From: Escherichia phage 92CQ
Reading direction: 5' to 3' (one strand)
DNA length: 64,000 nucleotides
Sequence record: PV682554.1
Position 1 is the stretch's first letter, and the number at the start of each line of letters is the position of its first letter. A program made the translations under genes and the position numbers. Positions 38,006-47,772 of the stretch are shown piece after piece. The notes under the pieces were generated by a model that did no database searches, was not told the origin of the DNA, and was given only the letters and a program-made list of their open reading frames with translations.

Positions 38006-38034
38006 TTGACGTTACCAGGGTAATAACATATTAT
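38006..38034 (+). promoter_or_regulatory. sigma70-like promoter (TTGACG-N17-TATTAT), leftmost of early array
   Basis: Near-consensus hexamers about 130 bp upstream of small ORF 38162. Confidence 0.45.
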
Positions 38035-38161
38035 TCATCTTGTCGAGGGGGGCAAGGCACAACGACAATAAATAAAAGGCGGGTGCAATGCAGGACGGGC
38101 AAAGGTGAGGATCTCCACAATCCACCGTCACAATAACATTACTTATAAAAGGTTGATAACG

Positions 38162-38257
38162 ATGATCAAGAAAGAAAACAGCTTGACGGTTGGAACGATT
38201 AACGCTATCATTCTAGCCGTTCCATTTTGGATTGTAGTAGCGGTTGTTATTTTCTAA
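38162..38257 (+). CDS. small hydrophobic peptide (31 aa), below ORF-track threshold
   Basis: ATG after AAAAGG; single predicted transmembrane helix. Confidence 0.4.
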   Translation: MIKKENSLTVGTINAIILAVPFWIVVAVVIF

Positions 38258-38266
38258 AAAATATTC

Positions 38267-38324
38267 TTGACAACGTTTTTTAATCTGATAAGATGTATCA
38301 CATAGGGCGGCAATAGTGCCGCTC
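38267..38324 (+). promoter_or_regulatory. early promoter (TTGACA-N16-TAAGAT, extended TG) plus leader hairpin GCGGCA-ATAG-TGCCGC
   Basis: Consensus -35; conserved CACATAGGGCGG leader immediately downstream. Confidence 0.6.
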
Positions 38325-38346
38325 ATAATAGAAGAGAGAAATAATC

Positions 38347-38619
38347 ATGGCATCATATAGCGCATCAATGATTGTAACGGGTATCACTGGTAAACCTATG
38401 CGCGGTGGCGGATCTTTCGCTAACATCAATATTGATGGGCGTTTATCCCTGGACGCAGCGATCACAGTGGCACGGGAAACGTTTAAAAAAGAATGTAATT
38501 TCAATAAACAAGATTATCTCGGCTTCGTTATTGAAAAAACCGCGCGCTTTGTTGATTATAAAAGCCCGAAAATGATCGACACTACACTAAAAGCGCAAGA
38601 TGTAGCATTTTTGCTTTAA
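38347..38619 (+). CDS. hypothetical early protein (90 aa)
   Basis: ATG with purine-rich RBS just after promoter-hairpin unit. Confidence 0.55.
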   Translation: MASYSASMIVTGITGKPMRGGGSFANINIDGRLSLDAAITVARETFKKECNFNKQDYLGFVIEKTARFVDYKSPKMIDTTLKAQDVAFLL

Positions 38620-38622
38620 GGC

Positions 38623-38682
38623 TTGACACTGAAAAATAATTTAGTAATATATACCACATAGGGCGGGAAATGGTTTCCCGCC
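38623..38682 (+). promoter_or_regulatory. early promoter (TTGACA-N16-TAATAT) plus hairpin GGCGGGA-AATGGTT-TCCCGCC
   Basis: Consensus hexamers; perfect 7-bp palindromic stem in leader. Confidence 0.65.
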
Positions 38683-38704
38683 AAATCAAAGAAAGGGTAA
38701 CACA

Positions 38705-39067
38705 ATGAGCAAGCAAATCAATACTATCATGTTAAACCTGGTATCTTTCCGCGATGACGTGAAAAATCTTTCGCGTGATGCAGTGGATGCACGGATCGAA
38801 AGCTATCGCACACAGATCGCGACATTACCGTTAAAACGTGATCAACATGCCGCTAATATGATGCTTGATGCTATGATTAAAAAGATGATTCAATGTGATC
38901 TTACCCTGGCTTATGAATATGCTGGCGATCTTTTTGTAACGTATAATAAACCCGTTCCAGGTATGAGCACCACGGAAGAATTGCATGCCTTAAATCTGCG
39001 ACAAGATGCATGGGATAACATGCGCCGTGTTATGGTATGGGTAGAAAGCGGTAAAATTTACGAATAA
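38705..39067 (+). CDS. hypothetical early protein (120 aa)
   Basis: ATG with AAGGG RBS downstream of promoter-hairpin unit. Confidence 0.55.
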   Translation: MSKQINTIMLNLVSFRDDVKNLSRDAVDARIESYRTQIATLPLKRDQHAANMMLDAMIKKMIQCDLTLAYEYAGDLFVTYNKPVPGMSTTEELHALNLRQDAWDNMRRVMVWVESGKIYE

Positions 39068-39073
39068 AAACGG

Positions 39074-39128
39074 TTGACATTGCACGAAAACCTGATAAGC
39101 TATCTTAAAGCGGGAATTGTTCCCGCTT
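39074..39128 (+). promoter_or_regulatory. early promoter (TTGACA-N16-TAAGCT) plus hairpin AAGCGGGA-ATTGT-TCCCGCTT
   Basis: Consensus -35; 8-bp stem hairpin in leader. Confidence 0.6.
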
Positions 39129-39145
39129 ACATAGGATAAAACTTT

Positions 39146-39292
39146 ATGAAACAATATGTAATGAGTATCCACACCAAAAACGGCGCTACTGTTACGACTC
39201 CGGCACGGTTTGCACTTGTAAACCGTTGCAAGAGACTAAAACGAGAGTTAAAAAATAACCGTGCAACGGGCTTTAAACGCTGGGGAGGATAA
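39146..39292 (+). CDS. small basic protein (48 aa), below ORF-track threshold
   Basis: ATG directly after hairpin leader; frame ends at TAA 39290-39292. Confidence 0.45.
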   Translation: MKQYVMSIHTKNGATVTTPARFALVNRCKRLKRELKNNRATGFKRWGG

Positions 39293-39294
39293 TC

Positions 39295-45618: not shown

Positions 45619-45628
45619 GGTGAATCAA

Positions 45629-45844
45629 ATGATCACGAATAAGACAGGTAAAACAGAATTTTTACGCGGCTTGCAAATAGGTAAACCTGAAATCTGGCAT
45701 TGCACTAAAACACCACGTGACGAAATGAAAGATTTCACCGCTACTTTACAACGTGTTAAAATATCTATCACACAGAAAAAAGCCTTGTTAGTAGTAGAAA
45801 ACGAGATCCCGCAAACTATTATTATTGTCGAGCGTACAGCATGA
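45629..45844 (+). CDS. hypothetical protein (71 aa)
   Basis: Track ORF 45611-45844 trimmed to ATG after AAGGTG. Confidence 0.5.
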   Translation: MITNKTGKTEFLRGLQIGKPEIWHCTKTPRDEMKDFTATLQRVKISITQKKALLVVENEIPQTIIIVERTA

Positions 45845-46191
45845 AAACAGAAATCATTATTGAAATCATCAACGGTTATAAAGAAGCCTTTATTTTTGCT
45901 GAATCCGCCAGGGATCATGAAGGTAATTTTATTGATAACTTAGACGATTATGATTTTTCAGATCAAGCCCATCAGCGGATCATTCATGACGTAGCGGCTT
46001 ATTGTGATGCCAATGATGCCGCTATCTCTGAGGCAATGGACGGGCAACAGCACCAGATGGGAATGATTTCATTTTACCGAAGTCACGGCGTAGGCTTTTG
46101 GGATCGCCTGAAAATACACACTAAACGCCAACGCTTACAATGCGCTAAATTATGCCATCGGTGCATGCTTACATTGGTGAAGATAATTTGA
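45841..46191 (+). CDS. hypothetical protein (116 aa)
   Basis: Track ORF; ATGA overlap with upstream gene. Confidence 0.55.
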   Translation: MKTEIIIEIINGYKEAFIFAESARDHEGNFIDNLDDYDFSDQAHQRIIHDVAAYCDANDAAISEAMDGQQHQMGMISFYRSHGVGFWDRLKIHTKRQRLQCAKLCHRCMLTLVKII

Positions 46192-46212
46192 TTTATATTG
46201 AATAAAAAGTAT

Positions 46213-46270
46213 TGACACCGATCCCCAATATGGTACTATTTACCACGTAGGCGGGAAATGGTTTCCCGCC
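46213..46270 (+). promoter_or_regulatory. early promoter (TTGACA-N16-TACTAT) plus hairpin GGCGGGA-AATGGTT-TCCCGCC
   Basis: Consensus -35 with canonical leader. Confidence 0.6.
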
Positions 46271-46293
46271 AGGTAATCAAAAAGGTAAATACT

Positions 46294-46683
46294 ATGCGCA
46301 ACCTGGTTTCTGTTTCTAACGTTGAAAAATTTCAATCTTTACAGGGTATCGTTAACAACGTAGCGCCTTTTTTAGTCAACGGCTTGATTGCAAAGATGAA
46401 AAATAAACATCATGCAGCATGGTCTGCTTACTGCTTTGATAATGATGAAAAAGCGGCTGAAATGATGTTAAATATGCTGTTAGACAGTGTAGAATCATCT
46501 TTACCGGAAAACATCGCAGAAGAGATCACCTATCGTTATAATATGGCGATCACTTACCAGGAAGTGGCGCAATTTAATATGATGGATGATGACGAACAAC
46601 AGGATCAGGAAATGTTTTGGGAGTATGCTGATCGTCAATCGGCTTTTGATGAAAAGTTAGCGATGTATTATAACGAATATTAA
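46294..46683 (+). CDS. hypothetical acidic protein (129 aa)
   Basis: Track ORF 46258-46683 trimmed to ATG after AAAAAGG; track start lies inside the hairpin. Confidence 0.55.
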   Translation: MRNLVSVSNVEKFQSLQGIVNNVAPFLVNGLIAKMKNKHHAAWSAYCFDNDEKAAEMMLNMLLDSVESSLPENIAEEITYRYNMAITYQEVAQFNMMDDDEQQDQEMFWEYADRQSAFDEKLAMYYNEY

Positions 46684-46699
46684 TACACGGTAAAAGAAA

Positions 46700-46726
46700 G
46701 GGGCGCACTAAGCGCCCTTTTTTGTA
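46700..46726 (+). terminator. rho-independent terminator (GGGCGC-ACTAA-GCGCCC plus TTTTTTG)
   Basis: GC stem followed by T6 run. Confidence 0.65.
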
Positions 46727-47066
46727 TTCTTTTTTTCACGATGGAAACAACACGTAAAGAATAGGCGTAAAGGTGGCGTAAAACCATCTAAAACCGACTG
46801 TAACCGCTTAAACAAGGTAGGAATGATTAATCACCTTACCAGGATGAAAAAGCCGTTATAAAGCTATCTAGAGCGTTTAAAGCACATAGGAAATAATTTG
46901 CTTTTTATCTTGCCTTTTATCCTGCTTTTGATTATTATTATGGAACGGGCGGCACCTGGGGACAGGGGAGTAATCACCGGAAGATCCCACTATATATTGA
47001 TAGCTAATAACTATCAAACAACAAAACATCAAAGGTATAAACTATCAAATCTTTAAATTCTACCTA

Positions 47067-47095
47067 TTGACACCGGATCACGCTTACACTATTAT
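47067..47095 (+). promoter_or_regulatory. sigma70-like promoter (TTGACA-N17-TATTAT) with degenerate leader
   Basis: Consensus -35; leader CACGTAGGGCAAATC lacks the GC stem. Confidence 0.5.
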
Positions 47096-47141
47096 TTATC
47101 ACGTAGGGCAAATCATTTTAAACGGTAAACGAGGAATCACC

Positions 47142-47525
47142 ATGAGCAATATCATCAACCTGGCAGCGACTGTAAACGGTAAAGACTTTAACGGCGCTGT
47201 AGACCGTGATCCTATGTGGTGCTTATCAGTGTTTAAAGGCGATCTGGTTGAAGTTAGAACAACCGAAGGTTATAGCGATGATTATAAATGCGAGATCCAT
47301 TTACATAACTGGTACACGGGTAAAACTTATGCGCTGAATCACGCGTTTATCGGGAAAATTGAATATCGCGAGATGATCGACGATGAAACGGGGCAAGATT
47401 TTAGTGATTATGTTTATATTCGTTCAGAAACATTAGCCGAACGTTTGATCGAGAAAATGAAAGCAAAAAATAAAATTAATTTATCTCATTGGATTGATAT
47501 AACAAACGATCCTGCTTATCAGTAA
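47142..47525 (+). CDS. hypothetical protein (127 aa)
   Basis: Track ORF 47067-47525 trimmed to ATG after ACGAGGAATCACC. Confidence 0.55.
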   Translation: MSNIINLAATVNGKDFNGAVDRDPMWCLSVFKGDLVEVRTTEGYSDDYKCEIHLHNWYTGKTYALNHAFIGKIEYREMIDDETGQDFSDYVYIRSETLAERLIEKMKAKNKINLSHWIDITNDPAYQ

Positions 47526-47540
47526 ATAACATTTCATACC

Positions 47541-47566
47541 AGGGCGCACAAAGCGCCCTTTCTTTT
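47541..47566 (+). terminator. rho-independent terminator (AGGGCGC-ACAAA-GCGCCCT plus TTCTTTTT)
   Basis: GC stem plus T-run; closes the early array. Confidence 0.6.
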
Positions 47567-47772
47567 TACCTAAATAAAGATGATAGCTTTTACCTATCAA
47601 AAACGTTCACCGAAAAAAGTGAATAGATCGCGGTATCGAGCTAATCAAGGAGCAGATGAACAACCATACCATGAAGATCATAAGGCGCTTACAACGTGTT
47701 TTAGACCGCTTATTTTTAATTTCTCAATGTAACTATCGGGCAAAAACAGCCTTTTTCTTGTCTTTCCTCTTA

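Follow-up and report, generated by a model that had tools for sequence, protein, structure and literature searches.

The window analysed here is a 64,000-nucleotide stretch of Escherichia phage 92CQ (PV682554.1), and its positions 38000-47600 hold a block of small genes in which a cassette of promoter, short leader and GC-rich hairpin recurs ahead of gene after gene. By BLAST, this block was 95-99% identical to Justusliebigvirus coliphages (phi92-like, Stephanstirmvirinae) and orthologous to phi92 gp225-gp248; in phi92 the block heads toward the right direct terminal repeat, stopping about 1.1 kb short of it. The relatives' annotations list hypothetical proteins only, and the phi92 GenBank record annotates the block with ribosome-binding sites (RBSs) only. 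An earlier note on this DNA, made from the sequence alone, had described the short open reading frames (ORFs) as having no recognisable domain. This held for 25 of the 28 ORFs, which had no Pfam family, but not for a DUF7249 protein, a T7 gp1.1 homologue and a T4 gp30.8 homologue, whose matches are consistent with an early, accessory gene block. The genes behind the cassettes are small and presumably early.

Promoters were scored as matches out of 12 to TTGACA-N16-18-TATAAT, with first-order Markov simulations as the control. At 10 or more matches, 20 sites were observed on the + strand and 3 on the - strand (simulated 2.8+-1.6 per strand), and at 11 or more matches 9 were found versus 0.2 expected. 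The array of at least 17 promoters claimed in the earlier note was confirmed, and its two exact TTGACA-N16-TATAAT sites are indeed present, at 40193 and 40905. The closeness to consensus, the bias to one strand and the conservation together strongly imply that these sites work as promoters. A-rich tracts were observed upstream of the -35 in the cassettes, and a leader motif, ATAGGGCGG, was found in six exact copies and two copies with one mismatch, all eight on the + strand, within the region and 7-8 nt past a -10. The further claim that most promoters carry the leader was too strong, with the motif at about 10 of 22 promoters and a hairpin at 14 of 22. CACATAGGG resembles the T7 promoter core CACTATAGGG, but this likeness was dismissed, as the upstream sequence is a variable sigma70 spacer and not a conserved 23-bp phage-polymerase promoter. 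DNA-hairpin promoters of the N4 type were also set aside, since this phage family is not known to carry a virion RNA polymerase.

Fourteen promoters were followed by a GC hairpin whose stem begins 6-14 nt past the -10 (mostly 10-11 nt) and ends 17-24 nt before the ATG, with a purine-rich Shine-Dalgarno (SD) stretch in between. Stems measured 5-9 bp and loops 3-14 nt (TGG, ATAG, TAG, TTG, AAC and others). RNA folding gave free energies (dG) of -14 to -19 kcal/mol and z scores of -2.4 to -5.8 against dinucleotide shuffles, leaving the SD and ATG unpaired throughout; the hairpin at 40158 was weaker (z -1.7) and that at 45472 degenerate. A fifteenth hairpin, at 45052-45073, was observed without a promoter. 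The hairpins located in the earlier note were present within 1-2 nt, and its view that the listed ORF starts at 41603, 44844, 46258 and 47067 fall inside leaders was upheld by SD-spaced ATGs at 41633, 44874, 46294 and 47142, which agree with the relatives' annotated coding sequences (CDS). A covariance model built from ten copies and run unfiltered over all 64 kb returned significant copies solely at 38.3-46.3 kb, and a repeat finder independently recovered the cassettes as direct-repeat families of 45-71 nt. One widespread stem, GGGCGG...CCGCTC, carries a fixed, high-frequency G.U pair, and unrelated stems were observed at the equivalent position (GCGGAGGA/TCCTCCGC in a relative; GGCGGTGG/CCACCGCC). 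An Rfam scan of 37.5-48 kb yielded no family match, giving two sub-threshold, chance-level hits only. The features of the block are as follows.

38267-38346, + strand: cassette TTGACA-16-TAAGAT, leader CACATA, A/G-rich RBS, before ATG 38347; repeat families D1/D2; hairpin 38305-38324, GGGCGGCA atag TGCCGCTC, dG -14.4, z -4.0.
38623-38704, + strand: cassette TTGACA-16-TAATAT, before ATG 38705; families D1/D3; covariance model 38.7 bits; hairpin 38662-38682, GGCGGGAAA tgg TTTCCCGCC, dG -15.4.
39074-39145, + strand: cassette TTGACA-16-TAAGCT, before ATG 39146; hairpin 39108-39128, AAGCGGGAA ttg TTCCCGCTT, 6 nt past the -10; orthologue loops ttg/tag/cta.
40115-40192, + strand: gene-less cassette TTGACA-17-TAATAT, leader CACATAAAGC, abutting the consensus promoter at 40193; weak 5-bp hairpin 40158-40170, z -1.7.
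40193-40257, + strand: hairpin-less consensus promoter TTGACA-16-TATAAT, leader unstructured, before ATG 40258.
40905-40986, + strand: cassette TTGACA-16-TATAAT (exact consensus), before ATG 40987 (DUF7249 protein); hairpin 40946-40962, GCGGGAA tag TTCCCGC.
41236-41317, + strand: chimeric cassette, before ATG 41318; families D1, D3; hairpin 41275-41295.
41554-41632, + strand: cassette TTGACA-16-TAAAAT, before ATG 41633; hairpin 41592-41611, GGGCGGCA atag TGCCGCCC, dG -16.9, z -4.3.
41855-41939, + strand: cassette with a degraded -35, TTGTAA-16-TAAACT, before ATG 41940; hairpin 41893-41916, AGGCGGTGG aatagc CCACCGCCT, dG -18.7, z -5.0, loop reverse-complemented in one relative.
42118-42196, + strand: cassette TTGACA-17-TAAAGT, before ATG 42197; hairpin 42156-42176, GGCGGGAAA tgg TTTCCCGCC.
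44423-44504, + strand: cassette TTGACA-17-TATATT, leader CTCATAGA, before ATG 44505; hairpin 44464-44484, GCGGGGAAA tgg TTTCCCCGC.
44791-44873, + strand: cassette TTGACA-17-TAAAGT, before ATG 44874; hairpin 44830-44852, GGGCGGCAA taggt TTGCCGCTC, z -4.6.
45052-45073, + strand: promoterless hairpin GGCGGGG ggagtatt CCCCGCC, dG -17.0.
45364-45420, + strand: solo gene-less cassette TTGACA-15-TAGAAT; hairpin 45401-45420, dG -18.5, z -5.8.
45434-45513, + strand: cassette TTGACA-16-TAAAGT, leader GACATA, before ATG 45514; degenerate hairpin 45472-45495, 5-bp stem GGGCG/CGCCC, 14-nt loop.
46212-46293, + strand: cassette TTGACA-16-TACTAT, leader CACGTA, before ATG 46294; hairpin 46250-46270, GGCGGGAAA tgg TTTCCCGCC.
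47067-47141, + strand: chimeric hairpin-less cassette, leader TATCRCGTAGGGC at 47093-47109.
38305, 38662, 39108, 40158, 40946, 41275, 41592, 41893, 42156, 44464, 44830, 45401, 45472 and 46250, + strand: promoter-linked hairpins.
38006, 38183, 40193, 40457, 42951, 43416, 44028 (4-bp stem only) and 47067, + strand: hairpin-less promoters.
ATG 40987, + strand: DUF7249 protein (Pfam match).
42571: T7 gp1.1 homologue (Pfam match).
47142: T4 gp30.8 homologue (Pfam match).

Selection was measured by aligning the region to 13 close relatives via best collinear BLAST segments and counting differences by feature class, a test independent of having picked hairpins. Mismatches per site were lowest in the -35 (0.015), followed by codon position 2 (0.019), the stem arms (0.021), codon position 1 (0.026), the SD-to-ATG stretch (0.027) and the -10 (0.031). 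They rose through the last 5 nt ahead of the stem (0.041), the first nucleotides past the -10 (0.054), the loop (0.056), the hairpin-to-SD linker (0.077), codon position 3 (0.080) and the promoter spacer (0.094). Of 238 stem sites, 23 were polymorphic, a lower share by Fisher test than in loops (16 of 69, p 0.006), spacers (82 of 227, p 5e-12) or third positions (570 of 2355, p 6e-8). The -35, -10, stem arms and SD are thus under purifying selection; the stem arms are held about as tightly as coding sequence, whereas the stretches separating the functional boxes are left to drift.

Four compensatory changes were observed at orthologous sites: C-G to G-C in the 38305 orthologue, A-T to G-C in the 38662 orthologue, and C-G to G-C in the 44830 orthologue, the last in two variant forms (two of the four) that occur in eight genomes together (GGGCGGGAA...TTCCCGCTC). 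In a model-fitted alignment (119 hits, 42 distinct rows), which is biased toward the structure, 96% of cells were paired, 4 of 8 pairs changed on both sides, and all covariation measures lay above every slid control and above all 500 shuffles. In the covariance search in related phages that the earlier note had proposed, the motif was present in relatives and 4 of its 8 pairs covaried. When the leaders were aligned by plain MAFFT, RNAalifold returned only four consensus pairs, an uninformative outcome, as MAFFT lines the copies up on GCGG and so shifts the stem arms against each other, and one stray sequence was included. The promoterless hairpin at 45052, which lies 8 nt past the stop of the upstream ORF and 19 nt ahead of ATG 45093, and whose linker is that of cassette 42118 (repeat family D5), was retained in Phapecoctavirus with a different stem and loop. 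Because this copy is kept across genera with altered stem and loop, the hairpin appears valuable without a promoter.

The same cassettes are where related genomes differ. Breakpoints, taken as the ends of BLAST segments against 15 relatives, were grouped into 41 clusters, 32 of which fell in cassettes (23% of the region; binomial p 2e-13) and 26 in hairpin-bearing cassettes (16% of the region; p 2e-11). Because nearly all intergenic DNA of the block is cassette, individual junctions were resolved too. Three states were observed at 45340-45440: Paula and EC_OE_11 carry cassette A, a 64-aa gene (phi92 gp243) and cassette B; the window carries the solo cassette A, at 45364, followed directly by cassette B; and PaulScherrer carries cassette B alone, without the gene, joined inside the 17-bp repeat GAAAAAATAGTTTGACA that precedes both promoters. 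In the window, this direct repeat flanks the solo cassette (45353-45369 and 45423-45439). The cassette at 41236 is a chimera, with a promoter 21/22 identical to that of 38267 and a leader-hairpin-linker segment 41/43 identical to that of 38623. At 47067, one cassette supplies the promoter and the next one the leader, with the fusion in the common TATCRCGTAGGGC and the hairpin lost; Paula, phi92 and others have both cassettes here, the hairpin and an extra gene (gp247) in between. The gene at 40258-40437 and the 40457 promoter are missing from phi92, PD06 and muut, with the junction at a common SD-ATGGCTA. The Justusliebigvirus KKE7M has, in place of window positions 41572-41870, a promoter-leader-gene module of 474 nt that matches the Vequintavirus rV5_ev156 at 94.7% identity (L005 5054-5527 versus L026 3325-3798), with the left crossover in the spacer of promoter 41554 (at 41572) and the right one in the -10 of cassette 41855. 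In L013, a more distant relative, hairpin variants peculiar to that genome occur across many cassettes, which points to concerted evolution. These junctions show the cassettes acting as joints for deletion, insertion and exchange of single-gene modules via recombination between cassette repeats, and one of the exchanges involved a phage of another subfamily. As a whole, the earlier interpretation was right in seeing a repeated promoter-hairpin cassette before small genes with a selected palindrome, but it missed this role as recombination joints.

An 86-bp cassette query matched 117 phage records, essentially all Justusliebigvirus or Phapecoctavirus, at several places per genome. Eleven cassettes of a complete 146-kb relative cluster in its orthologous 43-52.5 kb; outside the block, it holds isolated copies only, one of them with the same leader but the unrelated stem GCGGAGGA/TCCTCCGC. 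In the rV5-like phages the architecture recurs (TTGACA-16-TAnnnT, 10 nt, GGCGGGAA-nnn-TTCCCGCC) but the CATAGG leader does not; these phages also have three identical copies of a 50-nt repeat, TAGATGGCCTTGACTCCAGGGCCATCAATAAAGTAAA, with a hairpin that encloses the -35. Leaders and genes are shared between the block and the jumbo phage 121Q. A scan of IMG/VR with an 18-base pattern gave 10 loci, about as many as random matches would be expected in a collection of that size; five were Stephanstirmvirinae-like and the rest were at chance level, including one tRNA gene start.

The earlier note did not recognise the unit as a described element, but its composition, genomic setting and evolutionary behaviour match the PeSL cassettes of T4-like phages. 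A PeSL consists of an A/T-rich tract and a sigma70-like early promoter with a GC stem-loop, followed by an SD and start codon (Arbiol 2010, PMC2839356; Comeau 2014, PMC4122927). PeSLs are found in RB49/phi1, PST/T4 and nt-1/KVP40, where many copies occupy hyperplastic ORFan regions and delimit the indels that distinguish close relatives; the stem-loop may precede the promoter boxes, separate them or overlap them, and in a minor RB49/phi1 subclass it directly follows the -10 (PMC2839356; PMC4122927). One PeSL stem-loop terminated reporter transcription, lowering lacZ to the same extent as rrnB T1, and mini-circles were excised by pairs of cassettes (PMC2839356; PMC4122927). The phi92-like units share the A/T-rich tract, sigma70-like promoter and GC stem-loop followed by SD and start codon; many copies sit together in a hyperplastic small-ORFan block; they mark the limits of indels and replacements that separate close relatives, leaving chimeric, 'half' or solo cassettes; and the rV5-like relatives show the classical geometry, with a stem-loop enclosing the -35. 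All the features of architecture and behaviour that can be judged from sequence were thus found, and the T4-like host was not. The units differ from PeSLs in occurring in Stephanstirmvirinae (with related copies in Vequintavirinae) without sequence homology, in placing the stem-loop at a fixed position downstream of the -10 and within the predicted transcript, in having a conserved leader, CAYATAGGGCGG, that serves as a crossover patch, and in carrying hairpins without a T-run in a block that has a separate, canonical terminator family. No report of PeSLs outside T4-like phages was found in the literature searched. On its composition and behaviour, we assign the element to the PeSL architecture class, in a new phage group and with the hairpin apparently fixed in the 5' leader.

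We consider it fairly probable that the hyperplastic early-gene block of this phi92-like phage is built from portable PeSL-like cassettes in which a 5'-leader hairpin protects or insulates the mRNAs. In each cassette an A/T-rich tract lies upstream of a near-consensus sigma70 promoter; a short leader (CAYATAGG in many copies) follows, then a 7-9 bp GC hairpin and 17-24 nt of unstructured, purine-rich RBS sequence that often continues into ATGGCTA. Host RNA polymerase would start about 7 nt past the -10, placing the hairpin at the extreme 5' end of each transcript, where it would span roughly +1/+7 to +25/+30 and end 17-24 nt before the ATG. An initiating ribosome would cover the remaining 20 nt or so, and with the hairpin in place little naked 5' RNA would be left, so that the short A/U-rich mRNAs may be shielded from 5'-end-dependent decay (RNase E/RppH). 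The hairpins may also insulate the expression of each gene from its neighbours and punctuate cistrons in read-through RNA, and the conserved promoterless copy at 45052 would fit a role that does not need a 5' end. Stabilising stem-loops are known from the ompA 5' untranslated region and the T7 phi10 transcript, and such hairpins are expected to hinder 5'-end-dependent attack by RNase E/RppH. The cassette hairpins resemble them in being stable, a few nucleotides from the predicted 5' end and followed by an unstructured RBS, and differ in being a module of a repeated, recombining cassette and in having a predicted 5' overhang of 0-7 nt that may be too long in some copies.

Several observations weigh against this proposal. 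Eight promoters of the block have no hairpin or a 4-bp stem only. The intergenic DNA of the block is almost all cassette, and breakpoints would cluster in intergenic DNA under any model. No transcriptome or transcription start site map for these phage subfamilies was found in the literature searched, and the 5'-terminal position of the hairpin is accordingly a prediction from promoter geometry. A start about 7 nt past the -10 would give the overhang of 0-7 nt, and stabilising hairpins are expected within about 0-4 unpaired nt of the 5' end; in work on ompA, 5-6 unpaired nt is reportedly the limit of protection by a 5' stem-loop, and a start at the first CA would give 5-6 nt. The selection on structure proposed in the earlier note holds for the palindrome (stems 0.021 versus loops 0.056, compensatory changes, 4 of 8 pairs covarying), but single-side stem changes at orthologous sites, counted to separate RNA-level from DNA-level selection, gave 8 G.U and 7 A.C, with neither strand asymmetry nor an excess of G.U. 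Two orthologous hairpins were observed with reverse-complemented loops and unchanged stems, tag/cta at 39117-39119 and aatagc/gctatt at 41902-41907 (versus L003 and other loci). These flips are DNA-level dynamics: perfect palindromes therefore appear to flip at times as units at the DNA level, and loop orientation does not seem critical. The palindrome may have a DNA-level role.

Other features may point toward the transcript. In 39 of 55 unique hairpins the gene-strand RNA had a more stable fold than its antisense counterpart (mean difference -1.3 kcal/mol; binomial p 0.003), a bias that comes from G.U pairs, e.g. GGGCGG...CCGCTC, and that we treat as suggestive because the variants are related by descent and not independent. 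The conserved outer half-sites GGCGG/CCGCC lie 13-24 bp apart across copies. This variable spacing, together with the invertible loops, disfavours a dimeric DNA-binding protein and makes a fixed-spacing DNA operator unlikely as judged from the copies compared here; it is easy to accept for an RNA stem.

The hairpins could instead terminate or attenuate transcription that reads in from the preceding unit, curbing the output of about 20 tandem strong promoters. This role was proposed and reporter-tested for PeSL stem-loops, with lacZ cut as strongly as by rrnB T1 (PMC2839356; PMC4122927). It would suit the GC-rich stems, the position of each hairpin 60-100 nt past the upstream stop codon, the promoterless 45052 copy directly after a stop codon and the Paula record, which annotates several as terminators. 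However, no cassette hairpin has a gene-strand T-run, which makes termination doubtful, the Paula calls are mostly on the strand opposite the genes, and a hairpin past the promoter would attenuate its own transcript too; we regard this reading as rather unlikely. Somewhat lower still we place the possibility that leader and hairpin form a target site through which some phage or host factor controls the early class as a whole, be it an RNA-binding shut-off, antitermination or processing factor or a repressor at +5 to +30. The sharing of ATAGGGCGG and of the outer GGCGG/CCGCC pairs by many copies, the fixed position relative to the -10 and the purifying selection on stems would all fit such a site, but the stems vary in their inner part and in length (5-9 bp) and the loops in size (3-14 nt) and sequence, the loops are invertible, and the half-site spacing argues against a dimeric DNA binder. 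The pre-stem leader also evolves faster than the stem (0.041-0.054 versus 0.021), the rV5-like cassettes keep the hairpin and not the CATAGG leader, the region has no boxA-like sequence and no Rfam match, the stems are too short for RNase III, and no candidate regulator was identified.

That the palindromes act at the DNA level only, as cruciform-prone hot spots of recombination or template switching that drive shuffling together with promoter homology, with the RNA hairpin incidental, seems to us improbable. It would account for the loop inversions at two orthologous sites, the switching of hairpin classes at orthologous sites, the equal frequency of G.U and A.C variants and the breakpoints inside or at the edge of hairpins (38311, 38681, 41597, 42156, 45411-45422, 46262-46269). 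Many crossovers, however, lie in the -35, spacer, leader or at the ATG and not in the palindrome, and the fixed -10-to-RBS placement, the gene-strand stability bias and the fixed G.U pair (GGGCGG...CCGCTC) favour a transcribed element. The least probable reading is that the hairpins are functionless and alike because one ancestral intergenic segment was recently duplicated and spread by gene conversion; the cassettes clearly do evolve in concert, but spacers, loops and linkers diverge near-neutrally in the same cassettes in which the stem arms do not, and unrelated stems (GCGGAGGA/TCCTCCGC in a relative; GGCGGTGG/CCACCGCC) occupy the same position. Protection or insulation of mRNA is accordingly ranked as the most likely function; attenuation, a class-wide factor site and a purely DNA-level role are less likely.

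Known hairpin systems were also compared. A lambda nut site likewise places a promoter-proximal RNA hairpin in early transcripts, but the block has about 15 copies versus 2, its stems and loops vary, and its loops are not GNRA-like pentaloops; with no boxA-like match inside 38-47.6 kb, a lambda-type nut site was ruled out. T7 early RNA is punctuated by long RNase III sites, in contrast to the 7-9 bp hairpins typical of the phi92-like block, and an RNase III site of the T7 early type (about 20 bp of helix) was ruled out by stems of 5-9 bp. The host-takeover modules of SPO1 (terminal redundancy), T7 (class I) and T5 (pre-early), which are rich in genes of unknown function, resemble the block in their dense small genes, strong host-type promoters and adjoining terminal repeat; we know of no description of them as built from a repeated promoter-hairpin unit.

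An intrinsic terminator was rejected for the cassette hairpins, which lack a gene-strand T-run. A terminator scan flagged no cassette hairpin on the + strand, where it flagged only 46695 and 47541; on the - strand it flagged the bidirectional 42712-42736 and one cassette hairpin, 42152-42180, the latter on that strand only. Since the scan flagged only the GGGCGC-loop-GCGCCC plus T-run family on the gene strand, the phage appears to use a different, canonical terminator family in the block, distinct from the cassette hairpins (42712, 46695, 47541).

42712-42736: canonical bidirectional intrinsic terminator, AAAAGGGCGC aataa GCGCCCTTTT; repeat family D4.
46695-46723 and 47541-47559: sister copies of terminator 42712; repeat family D4.

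The Paula record calls several cassette hairpins 'terminators' (L001 2129-2153, 2581-2600, 5452-5475 and others), mostly on the strand opposite the genes and without a T-run; these are likely software over-calls.

The early block was also rich in Dam and Dcm sites, with 8.9 GATC and 4.6 CCWGG per kb, as opposed to 4.2 and 1.2 per kb elsewhere in the window. Against synonymous-codon shuffles of 28 CDS, GATC occurred 81 times versus 47+-5 (z 6.9) and CCWGG 37 times versus 8.8+-2.4 (z 11.7), while CTWGG/CCWAG (3 versus 12.9), GGCC (1 versus 10.9), AGCT (12 versus 31) and GCWGC (8 versus 18) were depleted. The enrichment was also observed in Phapecoctavirus and rV5-like early blocks; the stretches concerned, besides the window, are L012 7300-17500, L026 and MG065639 40-55 kb. 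A rise in CCWGG with a fall in CTWGG is a known signature of very-short-patch repair by Vsr, and the skew could reflect biased gene conversion in a hyper-recombining block. The site excess as such could point to a DNA-level layer, either methylation-linked control or Vsr-biased gene conversion.

Further observations concern single genes and flanking DNA. The 120-aa ORF at 38705-39067 has homologues in Stephanstirmvirinae, Vequintavirus (71% aa), the jumbo Asteriusvirus 121Q (65%) and jumbo phages of Erwinia and Xanthomonas; it is a widely travelling early gene, whose product some records label 'membrane protein'. Three GenBank records named 'Campylobacter phage' (MG065639, MG065645 and MG065656; UNVERIFIED, host C. 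jejuni) were 95% identical to the coliphage group and are classified as Justusliebigvirus; either the host has probably been mislabelled or the sequences stem from contamination. Between the terminator and the 47067 promoter, an ORF-free 340 bp (46724-47066) holds a promoter-like site at 46910 and a GC-rich segment, GGAACGGGCGGCACCTGGGGACAGGGGAG, and homology with three relatives breaks within it at 46915-46920; this stretch could encode a small RNA. Degenerate tandem or direct repeats (about 70% identity, offset about 67 nt) lie at 37029-37233, upstream of divergent promoters at 37.6-38.0 kb, and their counterparts are annotated as repeat_region in phages muut and alia. A long palindrome at about 48203-48245 (TATCATTAGCAGCCTATG-ccggaca-CATAGGCGGCTAATAATA) and a shorter one at about 48305-48323 (GCTTGCAA-caa-TTGCAAGC) are kept in 10-12 relatives, in the gene-poor stretch from the last early gene to the position of the phi92 right terminal repeat; they could be a terminus, packaging or origin element.

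A more speculative reading, which we hold to be about as unlikely as attenuation, is that the leader-hairpin is a class-wide RNA signal marking about 15 early transcripts for a dedicated factor or fate, such as immunity to phage-triggered mRNA decay, or a shut-off or processing site. If this were true, the cassette would be a regulon tag travelling with each imported gene, even between phage subfamilies.

Relatives of phi92, phAPEC8 and rV5 are common therapy candidates, and the functions of their early genes are essentially unknown. The placement of each early gene in a standard, exchangeable promoter-hairpin-RBS unit accounts for the differing gene content of near-identical isolates, and the cassette joints offer defined points for engineering or deleting early genes. 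The cassettes also form a natural series of 5' leaders, with one promoter class and different stems, for probing the effect of a hairpin on mRNA stability. The finding extends the PeSL idea of mobile regulatory cassettes and modular shuffling beyond the T4-like group, with a documented exchange between subfamilies.

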